64,000 bases of DNA, from NCBI GenBank assembly GCA_963833985.1, contig CAWIAD010000002.1, positions 6,400,001 to 6,464,000 of the forward strand, given 5' to 3'. The position numbers and the translations under genes were made by a program. Shown in pieces: positions 1 to 6,461 of this stretch. The notes beneath the pieces were generated by a model. It was not told the origin of the DNA, searched no databases, and saw only the letters and a list, made by a program, of their open reading frames with translations. Position 1 is the first letter of the stretch. The number at the start of each line of letters is the position of its first letter. The DNA is from an uncultured Planctomycetaceae bacterium. Its GTDB lineage: Bacteria; Planctomycetota; Planctomycetia; Isosphaerales; Isosphaeraceae.

Positions 1-114
1 CATGCATTGGGGTATGGCCCAACCTGCCCCCAGGAACTTGCGGCTGATTGTTACCGCATGTATGCTCGGCCCTCCGAAACACCCTTGACTTCACGTTATT
101 GGGGGCAAACGCTG

Positions 115-516
115 ATGGACATCAATCGACGCAGGTTACTGGCGAGTGGAACGACCTTGGCGGGCTTCTCGGCGCTGCATGGCGTGGCAGAGGTGCAGGG
201 TGGAGAAACGGCCAACGTTCCGACCGAGGCAGTAGTTCTCACGGCCATGGTGAAGGCCAGGACGGGGCAGGAAGAAGCGGTGAAGGAAGCCCTGCTCTCC
301 CTGGTCGAGCCGACTCGGAAGGAACCTGGCTGCCTCTGCTACAACCTTCACCAGTCGAAGTCCGACCCGACTCAATTCATGTTCTATGAACAATGGGCCA
401 GCAAGGAGGATCTGGCTGCCCACGGTAAAACTCCCCACATGAAGGCCCTGGGTGGGAAGCTCAAGGACAGAACAGAAAAAGGAGGCGGGGTGGTCTTGTA
501 CGAGTTGCTGAAGTAA
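115..516 (+). CDS. Putative quinol monooxygenase (ABM family) with a Tat-like signal peptide
   Basis: 'EPTRKEPGCLCYNLHQS...FMFYEQW...AAHGKTPHM' fits the ABM family; N-terminus MDINRRRLL followed by a hydrophobic stretch; ATG at 115. Confidence 0.85.
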   Translation: MDINRRRLLASGTTLAGFSALHGVAEVQGGETANVPTEAVVLTAMVKARTGQEEAVKEALLSLVEPTRKEPGCLCYNLHQSKSDPTQFMFYEQWASKEDLAAHGKTPHMKALGGKLKDRTEKGGGVVLYELLK

Positions 517-520
517 GGGG

Positions 521-647
521 CAGAGAATACAGGACAGCAGCCGGATAGACGCGGGAGAGAAACCGGGACGTCTTTGGTATTGAAGCGGCAGATCGAAAAC
601 GAGAGAGAAACCGGGACATCCTCAATATTGCAGTGGCGGGGGGTGTC
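521..647 (+). repeat. Left-end repeat cluster of the Y1 transposase element
   Basis: GAGAGAAACCGGGAC at 555-569 and 603-617, a degenerate copy near 521-535, and a hairpin GACATCCTC...GGGGGTGTC at 615-647. Confidence 0.8.
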
Positions 648-662
648 GGCGATACTGGTTCC

Positions 663-1340
663 ATGCCACGAACAGCACGATCGATCGAGGCGGGGATGGT
701 TTATCACGTTCTCAACCGGGGGAACGGGCGGTTGCGGCTGTTTCACAAGGATGAGGACTATGAAGCCTTCGAACGCGTGCTCAGCGATGGGTTGCAGAGG
801 TACCCGGTCGACCTGCTGACGTATTGCCTCATGCCCGATCACTGGCACCTGGTCGTCAGGCCGAGAGCCGACGCGGCACTGGGGAGGTTCATGGGGTGGG
901 TGGGCGTGACCCATGTCCGCCGACACCAGGAGCGCTATCACCGTCGGGGATCCGGACACCTCTACCAGGGCCGCTACAAGAGCTTTCCCGTCGCCGAGGA
1001 TGCTTACTTCCTGACCCTTTGCCGCTATGTCGAGGCCAACGCGGTGCGGGCCGGATTGGTGGCGCACGCCGAAGAGTGGCGCTGGGGGGCGTACTGGCGG
1101 CGGGCGCATCGCCGCACCGACCTTCCTCTGGGTCGCTGGCCTCTGGAGCGTCCCCGGAACTGGAGGACCCTGGTCAACGGCCGCCTCTCCCCTGAAGAGC
1201 TGAGCCAGGTCCGCAAGTCTGTTACGCGCGGCCGCCCGCTCGGGACAGAAGAGTGGATTCTGTCGACAGCGGCTCGATTGAAGCTGGAATTCACCCTCCG
1301 CAGCCCGGGCCGCCCACGTGCGAATCCCGAGAATCTGTGA
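663..1340 (+). CDS. REP-associated-type tyrosine (HUH/Y1) transposase, RAYT-like
   Basis: MPRTAR...YHVLNRGN, YCLMPDHWHLVV (HUH motif), GHLYQGRYKSF, catalytic RYVEANAVRAGL, WRWG, C-terminal PGRP. Confidence 0.92.
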   Translation: MPRTARSIEAGMVYHVLNRGNGRLRLFHKDEDYEAFERVLSDGLQRYPVDLLTYCLMPDHWHLVVRPRADAALGRFMGWVGVTHVRRHQERYHRRGSGHLYQGRYKSFPVAEDAYFLTLCRYVEANAVRAGLVAHAEEWRWGAYWRRAHRRTDLPLGRWPLERPRNWRTLVNGRLSPEELSQVRKSVTRGRPLGTEEWILSTAARLKLEFTLRSPGRPRANPENL

Positions 1341-1375
1341 TGTCCCGTTTTGTACGCCGTCCCGTTTTGCACGCC
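1339..1375. repeat. Right-end repeats of the Y1 element
   Basis: GATGTCCCGTTTT (1339-1351) is a near-perfect reverse complement of AAACCGGGACATC (608-620); tandem GTCCCGTTTTG(T/C)ACGCC at 1342-1358 and 1359-1375. Confidence 0.8.
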
Positions 1376-1414
1376 GGGTGCGATCGCGGGATTTGGCCTC
1401 TGATGAGAAGGATT

Positions 1415-1709
1415 CCAGGGATGATTACGCGGGTCGTCTACGGCCAGCCCTTCGGCGGTGGCGTCGTCGTCGGGGGCGTGGTCGGCCGAGATCAGCGTCA
1501 CCAGGGCGAAACCGGCGTCCTGCTCTTTCCAGTCGATTTCGAGGGTGGCCGCGAGCTGCACGGCGTCATAGGTGCGGAGCGCATGCGCATTGGCCAGCCG
1601 CATGGCGTCGTCGAACAGGGCTGGTGGAATTTCGAGAACCGCGTAACGGCCGGTCAGATGCTGGCGGGTGCGATAGAGGATCGACGACGCCTTGGCGGGG
1701 GAGAGATAA
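1415..1709 (-). pseudogene. 5'-truncated VapC/PIN toxin fragment
   Basis: 'FDDAMRLANAHALRTYDAVQLAATL...LISAD...AEGLAVDDPRNHP' is the C-terminal half of a PIN domain; the N-terminal catalytic Asp region is replaced by the repeat cluster at 1701. Confidence 0.75.
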
Positions 1710-1792
1710 TGGGACAGGAGAGGAGAGTTAACGGGACATCTATGGAGGAGAATTAACGGGACACCTTCGATATTGAAGCGGCGAGGGGTGTC
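1701..1792 (+). repeat. Second left-end cluster (three GAGAn6GGGAC copies plus a hairpin)
   Basis: Copies at 1701-1715, 1723-1737 and 1748-1762; 1748-1792 matches 603-647 at 35/45 positions, ungapped. Confidence 0.8.
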
Positions 1793-1871
1793 ACTGCAAC
1801 CGACACCGAAAATGCATGTGCAAGAGCCAACGAACCTCTTGCTTCCGTAATCCAGCGCATGCGACCGTATA

Positions 1872-1886
1872 GCTAGACAGTCTAGC
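1872..1886. promoter_or_regulatory. Probable antitoxin operator palindrome
   Basis: GCTAGAC-A-GTCTAGC, a perfect 7-1-7 palindrome just upstream of the antitoxin RBS (GGAG) and ATG. Confidence 0.6.
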
Positions 1887-1904
1887 CAATCTGGAGAACC
1901 TCTC

Positions 1905-2144
1905 ATGGACTGGAATCTTGCGGATGCCAAGAATCGATTCAGTGAGGTCGTGAACCTCGCGCTCACTGAAGGGCCACAGCGGGTTCGTCGCCGAAAGGAC
2001 ACGGTTGTTGTCGTGTCCGCCGCAGAATACGAGAGGCTCACCGGAGAACGTCCGGCCTTCAGAGACTACCTCGCCCAGGGGGAATCCTTCGAGGGTCTCG
2101 ACCTGGCTCGTGACCAGAGCCCCGGTCGGGACGTGGCCCTGTGA
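1905..2144 (+). CDS. Phd/YefM family antitoxin
   Basis: 'WNLADAKNRFSEVVNLALTEGPQRVRRR...VVVSAAEY'; GTGA overlap with the toxin gene. Confidence 0.92.
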   Translation: MDWNLADAKNRFSEVVNLALTEGPQRVRRRKDTVVVVSAAEYERLTGERPAFRDYLAQGESFEGLDLARDQSPGRDVAL

Positions 2145-2563
2145 AGGTCCTGCTCGATACCTGCGTCCTGGCGGAGCTACGCGGTCCCGAGGGACATCCC
2201 GCCGTCAAGGCCGCAGTCGCGGAGCTCGCTGACGGAGATCTCTTCTTTAGCGTCCTGACCATCGGTGAGATCGCCAAGTGCGTTGCGCTTCTCGCCGCCG
2301 GCCGAAAGAAGAAGGCCCTCGCATCCTGGCTCAACGGTCTTGAGGTCAAGTACGCGGACCGGCTCCTCGCCATCGACGCCGAAACGGCCCGGATCTGGGG
2401 CGAGTTCACGGCTCGTTCACAGCAGGCCGGGCAAATTGTGCCCGCCGTGGATGGGCTGCTCGCGGCAACCGGAATCCGTCACGGTCTGCACGTGATGACC
2501 CGCAACACTCGCCACTTTGAAGCGAGCGGGGCGCTTGTTCTGGATCCCTGGCAGGATTCATGA
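2141..2563 (+). CDS. vapC: VapC/PIN domain toxin
   Basis: LLDTCVLAE, SVLTIGEI, DGLLAATG, MTRNTRHF. Confidence 0.92.
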   Translation: MKVLLDTCVLAELRGPEGHPAVKAAVAELADGDLFFSVLTIGEIAKCVALLAAGRKKKALASWLNGLEVKYADRLLAIDAETARIWGEFTARSQQAGQIVPAVDGLLAATGIRHGLHVMTRNTRHFEASGALVLDPWQDS

Positions 2564-2768
2564 GCAAGCACAGAACGACGAGTCACCGAGGCGACCAGGC
2601 TGAAACTCTGAGAGAACTCTCTGAAAATCTCCACGGTACTCGATCACATTGACAGTAGTCATATCGCGTTGCTTGAGTTTCCGCGTGGCTCCGTCTGGAA
2701 TCGCGACCAGGTTCGCGGACTGTTTGACTCCCTCGTTCGGCGACACCCAGTCGGGTCGGCGGCCTGCT

Positions 2769-2857
2769 CGCGGCCCCGGACGCCTTCGTACGAACCCCGA
2801 AAGCGAGTCATGTCCCGTATTGGACCCGTATTGGGCCCCCGTCCAGTTTTGGACCCC
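2769..2857. repeat. Second right end: remnant of the transposase 3' end plus GTCCCG repeats
   Basis: 2769-2822 matches 1299-1352 at 40/54 positions, ungapped, followed by decayed CCCGTATTGG repeats. Confidence 0.75.
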
Positions 2858-2943
2858 TTCGGTATGATGAATTCCGATGTACACTCAAGAGTCTGCGCCA
2901 GATCCGTATTTGCTTCGTCGAACTCCATGCGGGGGGAGCGTTC

Positions 2944-3531
2944 ATGAGATACGACTTCATCGCCATCCCGGACGAGGAGATCCCCCAGGCACGAGAACCA
3001 CTCTTCCAGCACCTCGTCGTCACCTATGCCAGCGAGACCAACAAGACCGCCAGCATGTGGCGGGCGATACCCGGCGATCTGCTGGACTTCAAGCCCCACG
3101 AGAAGGTGAACACCATCCGTGCCATACTGATCCACCAGATCCTTTCCGAGCGACGGTTTTTCGCCCAGTTCGTCGGCATCCAGGAGCCACCTGTCGAAGA
3201 GCTGCTTCCTCCAGGCGATCATCCGATGGTAGGAGAATACCTGGACCAGTACGTCCTGTGTGCAAAGAGACGATTACCTCAGCTTACCGAGGCGACCGCT
3301 GAATGGTGGCTGACGGAGATGCCGTTCTTTGGTGGGCGGAGCAGGCAGCGAATCTGGACGTTCTGGCGGCGTGTGCTTCATACTTGCCACCATCGGACTC
3401 AGATCCAGACCTGGCTGCGCCTGGCGGGTCAACATGTCCCCGCGATCTACGGACCATCCGGGGATGTGCAATGGGACGACGCTGATCCGACCTATTCCCT
3501 GGAGGCGGCGAGGCGGGGCGGGTCAGGTTAA
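2944..3531 (+). CDS. DinB family protein
   Basis: 'LLDFKPHEK...ILIHQILSE' and 'RVLHTCHHRTQIQTWLRLAG..VPAIYGPS' give the DinB His triad. Confidence 0.85.
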   Translation: MRYDFIAIPDEEIPQAREPLFQHLVVTYASETNKTASMWRAIPGDLLDFKPHEKVNTIRAILIHQILSERRFFAQFVGIQEPPVEELLPPGDHPMVGEYLDQYVLCAKRRLPQLTEATAEWWLTEMPFFGGRSRQRIWTFWRRVLHTCHHRTQIQTWLRLAGQHVPAIYGPSGDVQWDDADPTYSLEAARRGGSG

Positions 3532-3628
3532 AAGGGCGGGCTCGGTCTCGTGGGGAATCTTGTAGTCATTTTGATTGATGACACAGGCTATCCAGCCTTA
3601 TCATGAAGCGTAGTACCAGAGGGCTGTC

Positions 3629-3823
3629 ATGCGTCTCTTTCCGAGGTTGGCACTGACACTCGTCCTCATCGCTTTCACGGCGTTCTGCGGGTTCGGGTTC
3701 CTTGCCAGCTTCGAGTCGCCTGGCTTTCTCGTGTTTCGGTGGCTCTACGGGGCTGTTGCCATCGCATGCGTCGTTGCCATCGTGGTAGTGTGGCTCAAAA
3801 CATACGCTCACAAGATGAACTGA
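3629..3823 (+). CDS. Small two-TM membrane protein
   Basis: 64 aa, two hydrophobic helices, GAGG upstream. Confidence 0.6.
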   Translation: MRLFPRLALTLVLIAFTAFCGFGFLASFESPGFLVFRWLYGAVAIACVVAIVVVWLKTYAHKMN

Positions 3824-3918
3824 CCAGTAGTTTCCGCGAAAAACCGCACAATCACGGCTTGATGCCTGCCACCCCGGTTGCTCCGGCGGCCCCACCTCGC
3901 CACCAGGCTTTTCTCGCG

Positions 3919-4030
3919 GAGAGAAAACGGGACATCTTCGGGACTCGTACGAAACCCTAAATTCAGTGACGTCCCGTCTTGGAACTCAAATTCAGTGACT
4001 TCCTATTTTGGAGCCGCTGTCCCGTTTGGG
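3919..4030. mobile_element. Empty left-end plus right-end (MITE-like) derivative of the Y1 element
   Basis: GAGAGAAAACGGGACATC (3919-3936) is followed by 3946-3981, which matches the right end 2787-2822 at 28/36 positions, then by decayed tandem copies. Confidence 0.7.
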
Positions 4031-4102
4031 AGCCCGTTTCGGCTTCATCGTCATTCAGTCCGCCCTGCTCCGTGGAATCACACGCGTACGGCGCGGCAGC
4101 AA

Positions 4103-5392
4103 TCAGCGCGGGGGACTTTCCGCCGGATCGGCTTTCTTCCAGGCCCGCACGTATTCGACGCTGAAGGTGGAGGGGAGGTCGGAATCCTCGGGCATGCCGA
4201 ACCAGTCTGGCATGGTCTCGCTGTCGAAGATCAGGAAGAGCGGCTGGTGCCAGTGGGTGTTCTCGACGCGCCGCACGGCAACACCGTCCACGTAGTACGT
4301 GATCTCGTCACTGCTCCAGTCCAGCCCGTAGACATGGAAATCCGCGGCCAGGCGCCAGGGGGCCACCCAGACCCCGCCTTCCTGCCAGTGCTTCCGCTCC
4401 GTCGGGGTGCGGAAGACGTGCAGCGTCATGTTGTCCTTGAAGTCGAATCCCCGGGCCTTGCCGCCGATCTCGAACACGTCGATCTCGGTCTGCCAGCCTG
4501 GCACCTCTTCCTGCTGGAACCAGAAGGAGCTCAAGCCGCCGGAGTCCATCGGCCTCGCCTTCACCTCGTAATAGCCGTAGCTGGACCGGGCCTTCGTATG
4601 CAGTGCAGCGCTGGTGTAATCTCGGTAGCCAAGCCTTTGAAACTCCTTCGGCACGGGCTCTTTCCGCATCGTCAGGTGCAGCTTGCCGTCCGAGACCGTC
4701 ACGTTTCCGTCCGAGAAGAGTGCCGGCTGCCGGCCCTTCCACCAGGACATTCCCATTGTCCATTTCGATGGATCGAGCGCATTGCCTTCGAACTCGTCGC
4801 TCATCGGCTCGAATCTCGTCCAGCCGCCCCTGTTCTGCTGGTCGGAGAACGGGTAAGCATGGGTCGCGTGCCTGGGTGTCTCGCCCAGTGGTCCTACCCT
4901 CGTCCAGACTTTCCCGGGGCGGCGCTCCACCGCGCTGAATGACGCCTTGCCGATCTCTCTGCCATTCTCGATGAAGCGGACTGTCCGGTACGGTCCACTG
5001 GGAACGGATACGATGAGCGGTGAGGCGAACGTGGCGCCGCCGCCGTCGCGCGGTGTCGCCTGGTACTGCACGGAGAGCGTTCCCTCGTCAGCGGTCACGC
5101 CCTCGACCCGGTACTCCCACACCCGATCGCCGCGTTTGATGAGGCCGGCGACCATCCGGCTGTCAAACGCGTTCGCCGGCAGCACGTTCGGTTTCTTGCC
5201 CTGTGTGAATGCGACTCCGAACGTCCTGTCAAACACCGCCCGGTCCCTGATGGCAAGGCAGCTCGATGCACCCTTCAGGCCGGAGTCATTCCTCTCGAAG
5301 TATCCGCTGTGGACGGTATATGGAACCGGCTGGCCCGGGGCCATCAGCAGCGATGCAGCCAGGCAAAGGCTCAAGACGGTGAGCTGGGGCAT
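4103..5392 (-). CDS. Secreted GH16 glycoside hydrolase with an extra N-terminal domain
   Basis: Signal peptide; SDEFEG, YGYYEVKAR, SSFWF, catalytic EIDVFE, FHVYGLDW, VEYVRAW. Confidence 0.9.
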   Translation of the reverse strand: MPQLTVLSLCLAASLLMAPGQPVPYTVHSGYFERNDSGLKGASSCLAIRDRAVFDRTFGVAFTQGKKPNVLPANAFDSRMVAGLIKRGDRVWEYRVEGVTADEGTLSVQYQATPRDGGGATFASPLIVSVPSGPYRTVRFIENGREIGKASFSAVERRPGKVWTRVGPLGETPRHATHAYPFSDQQNRGGWTRFEPMSDEFEGNALDPSKWTMGMSWWKGRQPALFSDGNVTVSDGKLHLTMRKEPVPKEFQRLGYRDYTSAALHTKARSSYGYYEVKARPMDSGGLSSFWFQQEEVPGWQTEIDVFEIGGKARGFDFKDNMTLHVFRTPTERKHWQEGGVWVAPWRLAADFHVYGLDWSSDEITYYVDGVAVRRVENTHWHQPLFLIFDSETMPDWFGMPEDSDLPSTFSVEYVRAWKKADPAESPPR

Positions 5393-5637
5393 GTTCGTCT
5401 CCTCCCGGTTGTTCGACCGGCCATCGAGGAAGGAATGTTCGGCGGCCCGGCTTCGGCCTGAGGGCTCGTCGGCTCTGGCCTGAGGGCTCGCCGGCATCGG
5501 CATCGGCATCGGCGGCAGCGGGCATCGCCGTCACCATTCTTGATTCTGCCTGTTCCGGTCGGCCGGGTCAAAGGAGGGGTCGCCTGGCGCGGGGCGGACC
5601 GCGGGTGCCTGCGCGGCACCCAGCGCGTCCGGGACGA

Positions 5638-6461
5638 TCAGTCCTGGCGCGGGTGCAAGAGCCGGAGGCTGAGTGGCATCTCCAGTCCGTGGGTTTCCAT
5701 CAGGCCTGAATCGCCAAGGATCGTGCGGCTGGGGCCGTCGGCGACCATGCGGCCGCGGTCGAGCAGGACGGCGCGGGGGCAGATTTCCAGGACCAGTTCG
5801 AGGTCGTGCGTGGCGATCAGCTTGGTCGCGGTCAGGCCGCTGATCAGCTCGATGAACCTGCGCCGGCCGCGCGGGTCAAGGTTCGCCGTGGGCTCGTCGA
5901 GCACCAGGATCGCCGGCCGGCAGGCCAGCACGCCTGCCAGGCAAACGCGCTTCCGCTCGCCGAAGCTGAGGTGGTGGGGCGGGCGTTCGGCGGCCTCGAG
6001 CAGGTTCACGCGCGCCAGGCACTCGCGGGCAAGCGCCGCGCCTCGTTTTGGCTGAGGCCCTGGTTCAGTGGGCCGAAGGCGACGTCCTCGAGCACGGTGG
6101 TGCAGAAGAGCTGGTCGTCGGGATCCTGGAAAAGCAGGCCGACCTTGCGGCGGACCTCGGCCGCCGTGCGCTGGTTCACCGCAACGCCGTCCACCCAGAC
6201 ATGGGGAGTGGCGCGGCCGTTGCCGCCGCCGAGCCGCAGTCCGTGCTGATGGCCAAGCTCCGGCCGTCCCTTGCCGGGAAGCAGACCGTTGAGGTGCAAG
6301 AGCAGCGTGCTCTTGCCCGCACCGTTGGGGCCCACCAGCGCCACGCACTCGCCCTGCGCGAGCTCGAGGTCCACTCCCCGGAGCGCCGGGCTGCCGTCGG
6401 GATAGGAATACTCCAGCCCGCACAGGCGAAGGGCAGGTGCAGCGGTGATCTCAGTGGTCAT
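5638..6461 (-). CDS. cbiO: ECF transporter ATPase NikO/CbiO (frameshift near 6040)
   Basis: GPNGAGKST and FQDPDDQLF in one frame; LSFGERKRVCLA and LDEPT in the next. Confidence 0.9.

Follow-up and report, generated by a model that had tools for sequence, protein, structure and literature searches.

Close to the start of a 64,000-nucleotide stretch of the genome of an uncultured Planctomycetaceae bacterium (contig CAWIAD010000002.1, positions 6,400,001 to 6,464,000; hereafter the window) lies a gene for an HUH/Y1 transposase flanked by inverted end repeats, with further copies of these repeats downstream. By its sequence this element is a TIRtron, a kind already described, in which a Y1 gene of the TIRYT type lies between terminal inverted repeats (TIRs; PMC3733652). 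An earlier note on this DNA had read the locus as an integron-like platform for gene capture; the best model is instead the scar of gene shuffling. We propose that the locus is a TIRtron hot spot where one-ended HUH strand transfer and local hopping build co-oriented patchworks, and we hold this to be probable, if well short of certain. The model rests on features read from the sequence: an intact enzyme, symmetric ends, stacked end tips, gene-less units, the position of the junctions, unrelated flanks and no target duplication.

Three units can be recognized (Table 1). Unit 1 comprises left end L1, the transposase gene and right end R1; in unit 2 the ends L2 and R2 enclose a phd-vapC toxin-antitoxin pair; unit 3 is empty. 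These three pairs lie where the earlier note had placed them, but more copies exist than it counted, partial ones being stacked outside most ends. L1 and L2 are identical at 35 of 45 positions (603-647 against 1748-1792), R2 agrees with the transposase tail and right end of unit 1 at 40 of 54 (2769-2822 against 1299-1352), and in unit 3 (3918-3984) a left end is fused to a right end that matches R2 at 31 of 39. Because these scores exceed the best found in the reversed 10.2-Mb genome (28/45, 34/54 and 26, respectively), the end repeats are not a product of chance. A profile of the ends, a check proposed in the earlier note and here built from relatives, gave 27 matches in the source genome and 3 in its reversed control. 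The window's exact left end was found in 3 of 401 genomes searched across the phylum, and a search of viral contigs gave 1 match, apparently by chance.

The 45-nt left end consists of an inverted repeat of about 20 nt and, as read from the sequence, a promoter-like -35 and -10 pair (TTGCAG at 628-633 and GATACT at 651-656) with 17-nt spacing. In L1 the -10 ends 6 nt before the transposase ATG, with the same spacing in relatives, and a transcript from L1 would probably be leaderless; L2 has kept the -35 and lost the -10. L1 and R1 are complementary over the core, and in close relatives the ends are near-perfect inverted repeats of about 20 bp at fixed spacing from the gene. The window core, CGGGACAY, agrees with GGGGWSAS at 6-7 of 8 positions in six window ends and at 7 of 8 in L001 (here and below, L with three digits denotes an individual retrieved locus, G000 the source genome and other G labels the genomes of relatives). 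The same hairpin had been claimed for the left ends. Folding of nine end segments as single-stranded DNA, on both strands, did not bear this out: z scores ran from +2.0 to -2.0, none below -2 and none significant, and the hairpin is not conserved in the left ends of relatives.

The stacked partial copies all begin from the same tip, and in a survey of the clade an outer partial copy accompanied 61 of 209 ends. Gene-less units are frequent. Among 109 distinct paired elements shorter than 950 bp, taken from all retrieved loci, 29 are transposase-sized, 53 miniature, 23 empty and 4 of other kinds (a transposase extended in its left part, two transposases with deletions and, judged by eye, one IS-like insert); 76 of the 109 are thus gene-less, and none holds a foreign gene. 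A miniature of about 128 bp, made of the clade's repeats with a conserved interior (L113-L132), is dispersed in dozens of copies per genome in G011 and G006, often two or three within a few kilobases; the end motif matches 74 times in G011 against 3 for the reversed pattern, and 67 times against 0 in G006. Gene-less units therefore spread. The source genome has its own miniature of about 190 bp at two sites 0.8 Mb apart. Gene-less repeats, whether single, dimeric or clustered, were described along with TIRtrons (Di Nocera, De Gregorio and Rocco 2013, PMC3733652), so empty units are to be expected here.

The transposase (663-1340) is the only full-length copy of its sub-lineage found in a scan of the genome. 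Across 24 aligned proteins H60 is invariant, H62 and Y122 are at least 90% conserved, a C-terminal extension is present and conserved, and none of the 24 matched a helix-turn-helix (HTH) family of Pfam. The modelled structure (pLDDT 89) finds its best fold match in Escherichia coli TnpA-REP (4ER8), followed by ISDra2 and IS608; a search of the PDB by sequence gave no meaningful match. The NCBIfam models NF047646, for RAYTs (64 bits, cut-off 80), and NF033573, for IS200-type enzymes (13 bits, cut-off 55), both score below cut-off. At the site of the class-2 signature the window protein reads YVEANA, part of its relatives have NP, and the conserved serine is missing. Of 121 family genomes, 85 encode homologues, frequently in multiple copies, and the closest named records are planctomycete metagenome-assembled genomes. 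The earlier note had placed the enzyme at the head of an array; across genomes it is multicopy and scattered.

Further evidence comes from the junctions with neighbouring DNA. For 26 ends we found an element-free homologue of one flank, and in none of them (0/26) does the opposite flank continue that homologue. Homology stops 0-14 nt (median about 5) outside the repeat profile, also beside intact transposase copies. There is no target duplication among 103 elements, the longest shared word being 4.14 bases against 4.13 in shuffled pairs. Empty alleles were found neither for 66 elements nor, with longer flanks, for 108-109. Within the window three neighbours are cut at an end (a vapC gene, a gmrSD gene and an IS701-like terminus), and the homology of the ABM-family gene to a relative's copy stops 1 nt past its stop codon, at the first partial end copy. 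Of 22 pairs of neighbouring units, 17 point in the same direction (p=0.017; the pairs are not independent).

By analogy with TnpA-REP and IS608, we propose that the enzyme binds the repeat in single-stranded DNA and nicks a few bases outside it through a Y122 phosphotyrosine, after which the cut end would reseal onto a second nick of low sequence specificity. If the second nick fell within the same end, a stacked partial copy would result, and if it fell deeper inside, a miniature or an empty unit such as unit 3; in adjacent or incoming DNA it would cut a gene short and remove or exchange the flank, as with vapC, gmrSD and the IS701-like end. Repeated local events would pile up units in the same direction. 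One reaction with a variable second nick could thus account for stacked copies, miniatures, empty units, orphan ends and truncated neighbours. Under this model the genes between repeats are probably leftovers of one-ended joins, not purpose-built cargo, and phd-vapC has probably been kept here because a toxin-antitoxin pair resists loss.

It is also conceivable that the enzyme inserts only its own element and that the patchwork arose passively, host microhomology recombination together with IS4, IS701-like elements and introns eroding copies in a dispensable region. Other mobile elements do target the ends: an IS4-family element (11 copies) lies mostly in repeat-like sites, 3 of its 11 copies having inverted flanks and no duplication, and long end pairs mostly hold an insert that by eye is IS- or intron-like. 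The gmrSD/R2 join shows a few bases of microhomology, and the end copies are 22-26% diverged and hence old. Yet junctions left by passive decay should not cluster a few bases outside the repeat, as they do here in place of random distances, with not one clean insertion among the 26, nor should stacked partial copies share one tip. We regard this explanation as quite unlikely.

In unit 2 the gmrSD stub has lost its start codon, its frame is broken, and it is cut exactly where R2 starts. At the other side, homology of the phd upstream region to two same-genus copies starts at about 1813, just outside a repeat at 1797-1812. This repeat resembles the right repeat of a second TIRYT family, at 13 of 16 positions; the genome contains 76 matches of this kind, grouped in 36 clusters, and its reversed version 4. 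Although noticed after the fact, it has in our judgment about two chances in three of being an end of that family, closing L2. In that case 1698-1812 would be a closed hybrid empty unit, phd-vapC would lie outside an end and R2 would be an orphan. Our preferred reading of unit 2 has three parts: L2, closed by an end of the second family; a foreign segment; and R2 as an orphan end. The earlier note had named, as a finding that would count against it, a decayed transposase copy with an unrelated insertion, and unit 2 goes part of the way there: it looks like decayed ends around unrelated DNA.

Alternatively, unit 2 is a true cargo-carrying, non-autonomous TIRtron, in which the transposase of a paralogue was exchanged for phd-vapC and the gmrSD stub by internal strand transfer, the whole then moving in trans. 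The two ends, L2 and R2, are 1.07 kb apart in facing orientation, come from one sub-lineage and both have outer partial copies, and R2 retains the last codons of a transposase; gene-less derivatives spread, facing ends surround 5 kb of genes in L134, and sequestration of flanking genes has been proposed for bacterial interspersed mosaic element (BIME) units (PMC3333891, in the text accessible to us). Set against this, no second copy of unit 2 was found in the source genome, and no match spanning vapC-gmrSD or gmrSD-R2 in 120 family genomes. The vapC fragment outside L2 is cut at the outer edge of the L2 stack and its 5' part does not reappear beyond R2, so the flanks of unit 2 do not rebuild a target; moreover, L2 is probably closed by another end. 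Homologues of phd-vapC at 7 loci and of dinB at 6 have borders without such ends. Unit 2 could in principle move as a composite, although the sequences compared hold no trace of such a move, and we consider the cargo explanation unlikely.

Nor is replacement of the transposase by cargo, central to the earlier note, a recurrent event: apart from the loose case of L134, no left-gene-right unit appeared among at least 104 left ends, the 109 paired elements and five long pairs. In metagenomes the left ends (at least 104 distinct ones, among the matches listed) are followed by a transposase in 49 cases and form a miniature in 21; 13 are too short to classify and 21 are of other kinds. Inspection of 14 of these 21 (of the 21, seven comprise only 319 bases) and of 9 truncated or clustered transposase loci revealed orphan ends, inserts that are intron- or IS-like by eye, and chance matches, with no left-gene-right unit. 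Orphan left ends fused to unrelated DNA are seen in L212, L187, L222 and L184. As for the five facing pairs of 950 bp or more, two enclose an insert of intron- or IS-like type, in one the second end is weak, one consists of mis-paired miniatures in the source genome, and the last is L134. Among the genomes and loci compared, no end-cargo-end unit recurred at a second site or had an empty allele.

The most far-reaching alternative is the integron-like platform itself, in which the Y1 gene heads an ordered array and the ends serve as cassette sites where whole genes are captured and reordered, precisely and reversibly, under the left-end promoter. Integrons are built around the tyrosine recombinase IntI and whole-gene cassettes, each with one folded recombination site. 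The locus shares with them same-direction repeats with small genes and a toxin-antitoxin pair in between, a pattern also seen in units with small genes at G000:C2:2537597-2544840, and both the co-orientation of units and the promoter-like sequence of the left ends fit. The enzyme here is of the HUH type, however; no Rfam family matched in 1-6000, and no integrase was found among 10 open reading frames (ORFs) scanned from 1-5400. The boundaries cut through genes (vapC, gmrSD, the IS end), which largely refutes precise capture, and there is no pattern of one site per gene. Close to an end, within 400 bp, lie genes for MetRS, RecJ, UvrD and proC-type and trpF-type enzymes, among others, and housekeeping functions are thus represented too. 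Toxin-antitoxin or defence-like genes make up 9 of 108 near an end (at most 400 bp away) and 6 of 108 far from one (3.5 kb or more away, a set of 108 out of 129 genes called there; classes counted by hand; p=0.59). Cargo enrichment, whose absence the earlier note had said would speak against its view, is thus not evident for these classes. With phd-vapC and dinB homologues elsewhere free of ends and the enzyme scattered and multicopy, we think an integron-like platform very improbable. What stands of the earlier note is the HUH enzyme with inverted ends, the gene-less derivatives and foreign DNA joined to ends, all of which are present; the ends probably do drive rearrangement, but not in a cassette-like or integron-like manner.

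Several points weigh against the hot-spot model. Clean insertions could have been masked by later deletion, since the 26 flank homologues, paralogous or from other species, are 67-96% identical; about 8 of the 26 correspond to further copies of the transposase, and the count of 0/26 was made without a simulated positive control. Comparison of the orthologous locus in 40 relatives, another check proposed in the earlier note, gave scattered single-gene matches, with no synteny and no empty allele of the locus. For replication strand as a possible cause of the co-orientation, the count was 19 of 29 Y1 loci (p=0.14, weak skew), and the model fixes neither polarity nor strand of the cut. The two TIRYT papers (PMC3733652, PMC6006769), in their accessible text, report no enzyme activity or movement. 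For unit 2, the facing arrangement of L2 and R2, their likeness to unit 1 (both about 75%) and the transposase codons in R2 also fit one element with a replaced interior, and its sole parallel, a loose one, is L134:4508-9557 (G009:C10), where a pair of orphan miniature halves point toward each other across 5 kb of genes. The second-family end is unsupported by a broad profile from 22 sites of other genomes (5 bits; 5099 real matches against 5499 in the control).

Table 1. Features of the TIRtron locus and its flanks, in window coordinates.
Feature	Position	Strand	Evidence and remarks
ABM-family monooxygenase gene	7..516	+	Pfam PF03992, E 1e-20; flank upstream of unit 1
Two partial left-end copies, stacked outward	518..599	+	Cores near 530 and 564
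Left end L1	600..662	+	Terminal inverted repeat of ~20 nt, then -35/-10-like promoter; layout common to relatives
HUH/Y1 transposase, 225 aa, intact, TIRYT type	663..1340	+	Pfam PF01797, E 2.5e-15; H60-W-H62, Y122
Right end R1 and one outer partial copy	1328..1376	-	Core of partial copy near 1364; overlaps transposase stop codon
PIN/VapC gene, 3' part	1415..1705	-	Residues 63-158 of a 158-aa homologue, 74% identical; 5' part gone
Left end L2 and two outer partial copies	1698..1792	+	Cores near 1710 and 1732; 35/45 to L1
Probable right end of second TIRYT family, facing L2	1793..1812	-	13/16 to repeat beside Y1 gene G000:C2:2427251
phd antitoxin (1905-2144) and vapC toxin (2141-2563), with own upstream region	1813..2563	+	Pfam PF02604, PF01850; both frames open
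GmrSD-family restriction gene, decayed 5' stub	2618..2768	+	150 bp; ~50 codons of ~650 aa
Right end R2 and outer partial copies	2769..2860	-	Core about 2840; last ~14 codons of paralogous transposase plus inverted repeat
DinB-family gene	2944..3531	+	Pfam PF05163
Hydrophobic ORF, 64 aa	3629..3823	+	No family match above cut-off
IS701-like element, terminal 93 bp	3825..3917	+	Cut 3 nt outside L3 repeat
Empty unit 3 and outer partial copies	3918..4045	+	Cores near 4005 and 4024; left repeat fused to ~40 nt of R2-type right end (3918-3984)
GH16 glycoside hydrolase gene, downstream flank	4103..5392	-	Pfam PF00722

Pfam agrees with the Y1_Tnp, Phd, PIN, DinB and ABM labels given earlier. Of the short genes that had been placed between the units, the truncated vapC, dinB and the hydrophobic ORF do lie there, whereas the ABM gene sits upstream of unit 1. 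The DinB gene has an 82% identical paralogue elsewhere in the genome, without such ends. Longer copies of the IS701-like end exist in the source genome and in G003; the linked ORF matches NF049999 at E 2e-8, below cut-off. The vapC fragment has no stop codon, and its frame (1025-2041, minus strand) stays open for 338 codons through L2 into the transposase antisense, which is probably incidental.

Among known systems, TIRtrons are the closest in organization. The earlier note had taken it that Y1 enzymes use no terminal inverted repeats, a premise overtaken by the accounts of TIRtrons in PMC3733652 and PMC6006769. The locus shares with them, as far as the accessible text of PMC3733652 goes, a Y1 HUH gene, non-REP terminal inverted repeats at a near-fixed distance and gene-less families. 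The core GGGGWSAS, which that source gives as common to some TIRs only, is approached by the window core to the extent given above. Stacked partial ends, flank replacement, passenger genes and hybrid ends, in contrast, do not appear in that text. Quentin (2018, PMC6006769), again in the portion accessible, equates most TIRYTs with TnpA-Y1 subclass 2.1, found in 14.9% of strains. The window protein resembles this subclass, which is RAYT Group 1 (PMC6006769, PMC5581495, accessible parts), in its size class of about 225-240 aa, class-2-like core, C-terminal extension, lack of repetitive extragenic palindrome (REP) hairpins and multicopy, IS-like distribution; it differs, in a comparison by description, in having YVEANA in place of Y---NP, no conserved serine and no HTH family match. 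In the literature covered, mostly without subscription papers, supplements or Figure 9 of PMC3733652, we found no TIRtron cargo, flank replacement, stacked tips or hybrid ends, and the name TIRYT only in PMC3733652 and PMC6006769, seen in part.

TnpA-REP, the best match of the modelled fold, offers a biochemical parallel. The E. coli enzyme is described as needing only a dinucleotide for cleavage, far from where it binds, and as transferring strands with low specificity (Ton-Hoang 2012, PMC3333891), and for REPtrons the same source, in its accessible text, gives precise gene loss that leaves the repeats (7 strains), replacement by hicAB toxin-antitoxin genes (24 strains) and the proposed sequestration of flanking genes mentioned above. 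The window ends differ in having no GTAG-tagged or significant hairpins, and the gene in being multicopy and apparently mobile. IS200/IS605 elements such as IS608 and ISDra2 have asymmetric subterminal hairpins, act on one strand and insert cleanly beside a short target (PMC3333891, accessible text). They share with the window element the HUH/Y1 fold and the lack of target duplication; window-type ends are symmetric, and clean insertion was not seen in the 26 cases.

Other observations concern the wider Y1 complement and its neighbours. Y1 loci of several types, fragments included, number about 29 in the source genome, and in more than 12 the core contains a long insertion (subclass-2.3-like by eye). 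Two divergent genes of the second TIRYT family at G000:C2:3098949 and C2:2427251 (L160, L161), about 39% identical to the window's, have long arrays of stacked partial ends on both sides. A second hot spot, G000:C2:2537597-2548900 (L158), holds four same-direction left ends of the window's sub-lineage and two miniatures. It also has a longer Y1 gene, flanked by stacked ends of its own, and, as labelled by eye, small membrane-protein genes, a PadR-like gene and two IS elements, one ISAzo13-like and one IS1634-like. The IS4-family element is 1,478 bp long, and its 11 copies (G000:C1:292152, C2:1901081, C2:3541198 and 8 others; about 97.5% identical) sit mostly at GGGAC-type sites, with an 11-bp duplication in 8; the inverted flanks of the remaining three are TIRtron-like, in two with stacked tips, and probably reflect deletion between two ends. 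Another element, with a 559-aa reverse-transcriptase-like ORF (probably a group II intron, by eye), occupies the same spot just inside a TIRtron left end in L232:1277-4637, L204 and L239. Ends of different TIRYT families lie less than 150 bp apart at L115:1616-1719, L162:5397-5462 and L210:248-322, which suggests cross-family targeting. In one metagenome (L182:6759-6839, L222:6253-6333) the interior of a truncated element is fused to DNA that resembles, at 94%, the right flank of its full-length sibling, which may record capture from the sibling's flank.

It is tempting to speculate further that TIRYTs are general one-ended splicers, which would join a fixed end to almost any single-stranded target, create cross-family fusions and occasionally mobilize end-gene-end composites such as L2-phd-vapC-R2. 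We hold this generalization to be doubtful; if true, gene islands could form through HUH enzymes by a route unlike that of integrons, ISCR rolling circles or the peel-and-paste movement of IS608-type elements. The integron-like reading would matter most and is not supported. TIRYT-type Y1 genes are common in the family, as the count of genomes given above indicates. The unrelated flanks, the lack of clean insertions and the lack of target duplication predict an unusual, destructive mode of movement, for which exact oligonucleotide substrates are now defined. If the hot-spot model is correct, TIRtrons would continually generate deletions and shuffle genes in large soil genomes.

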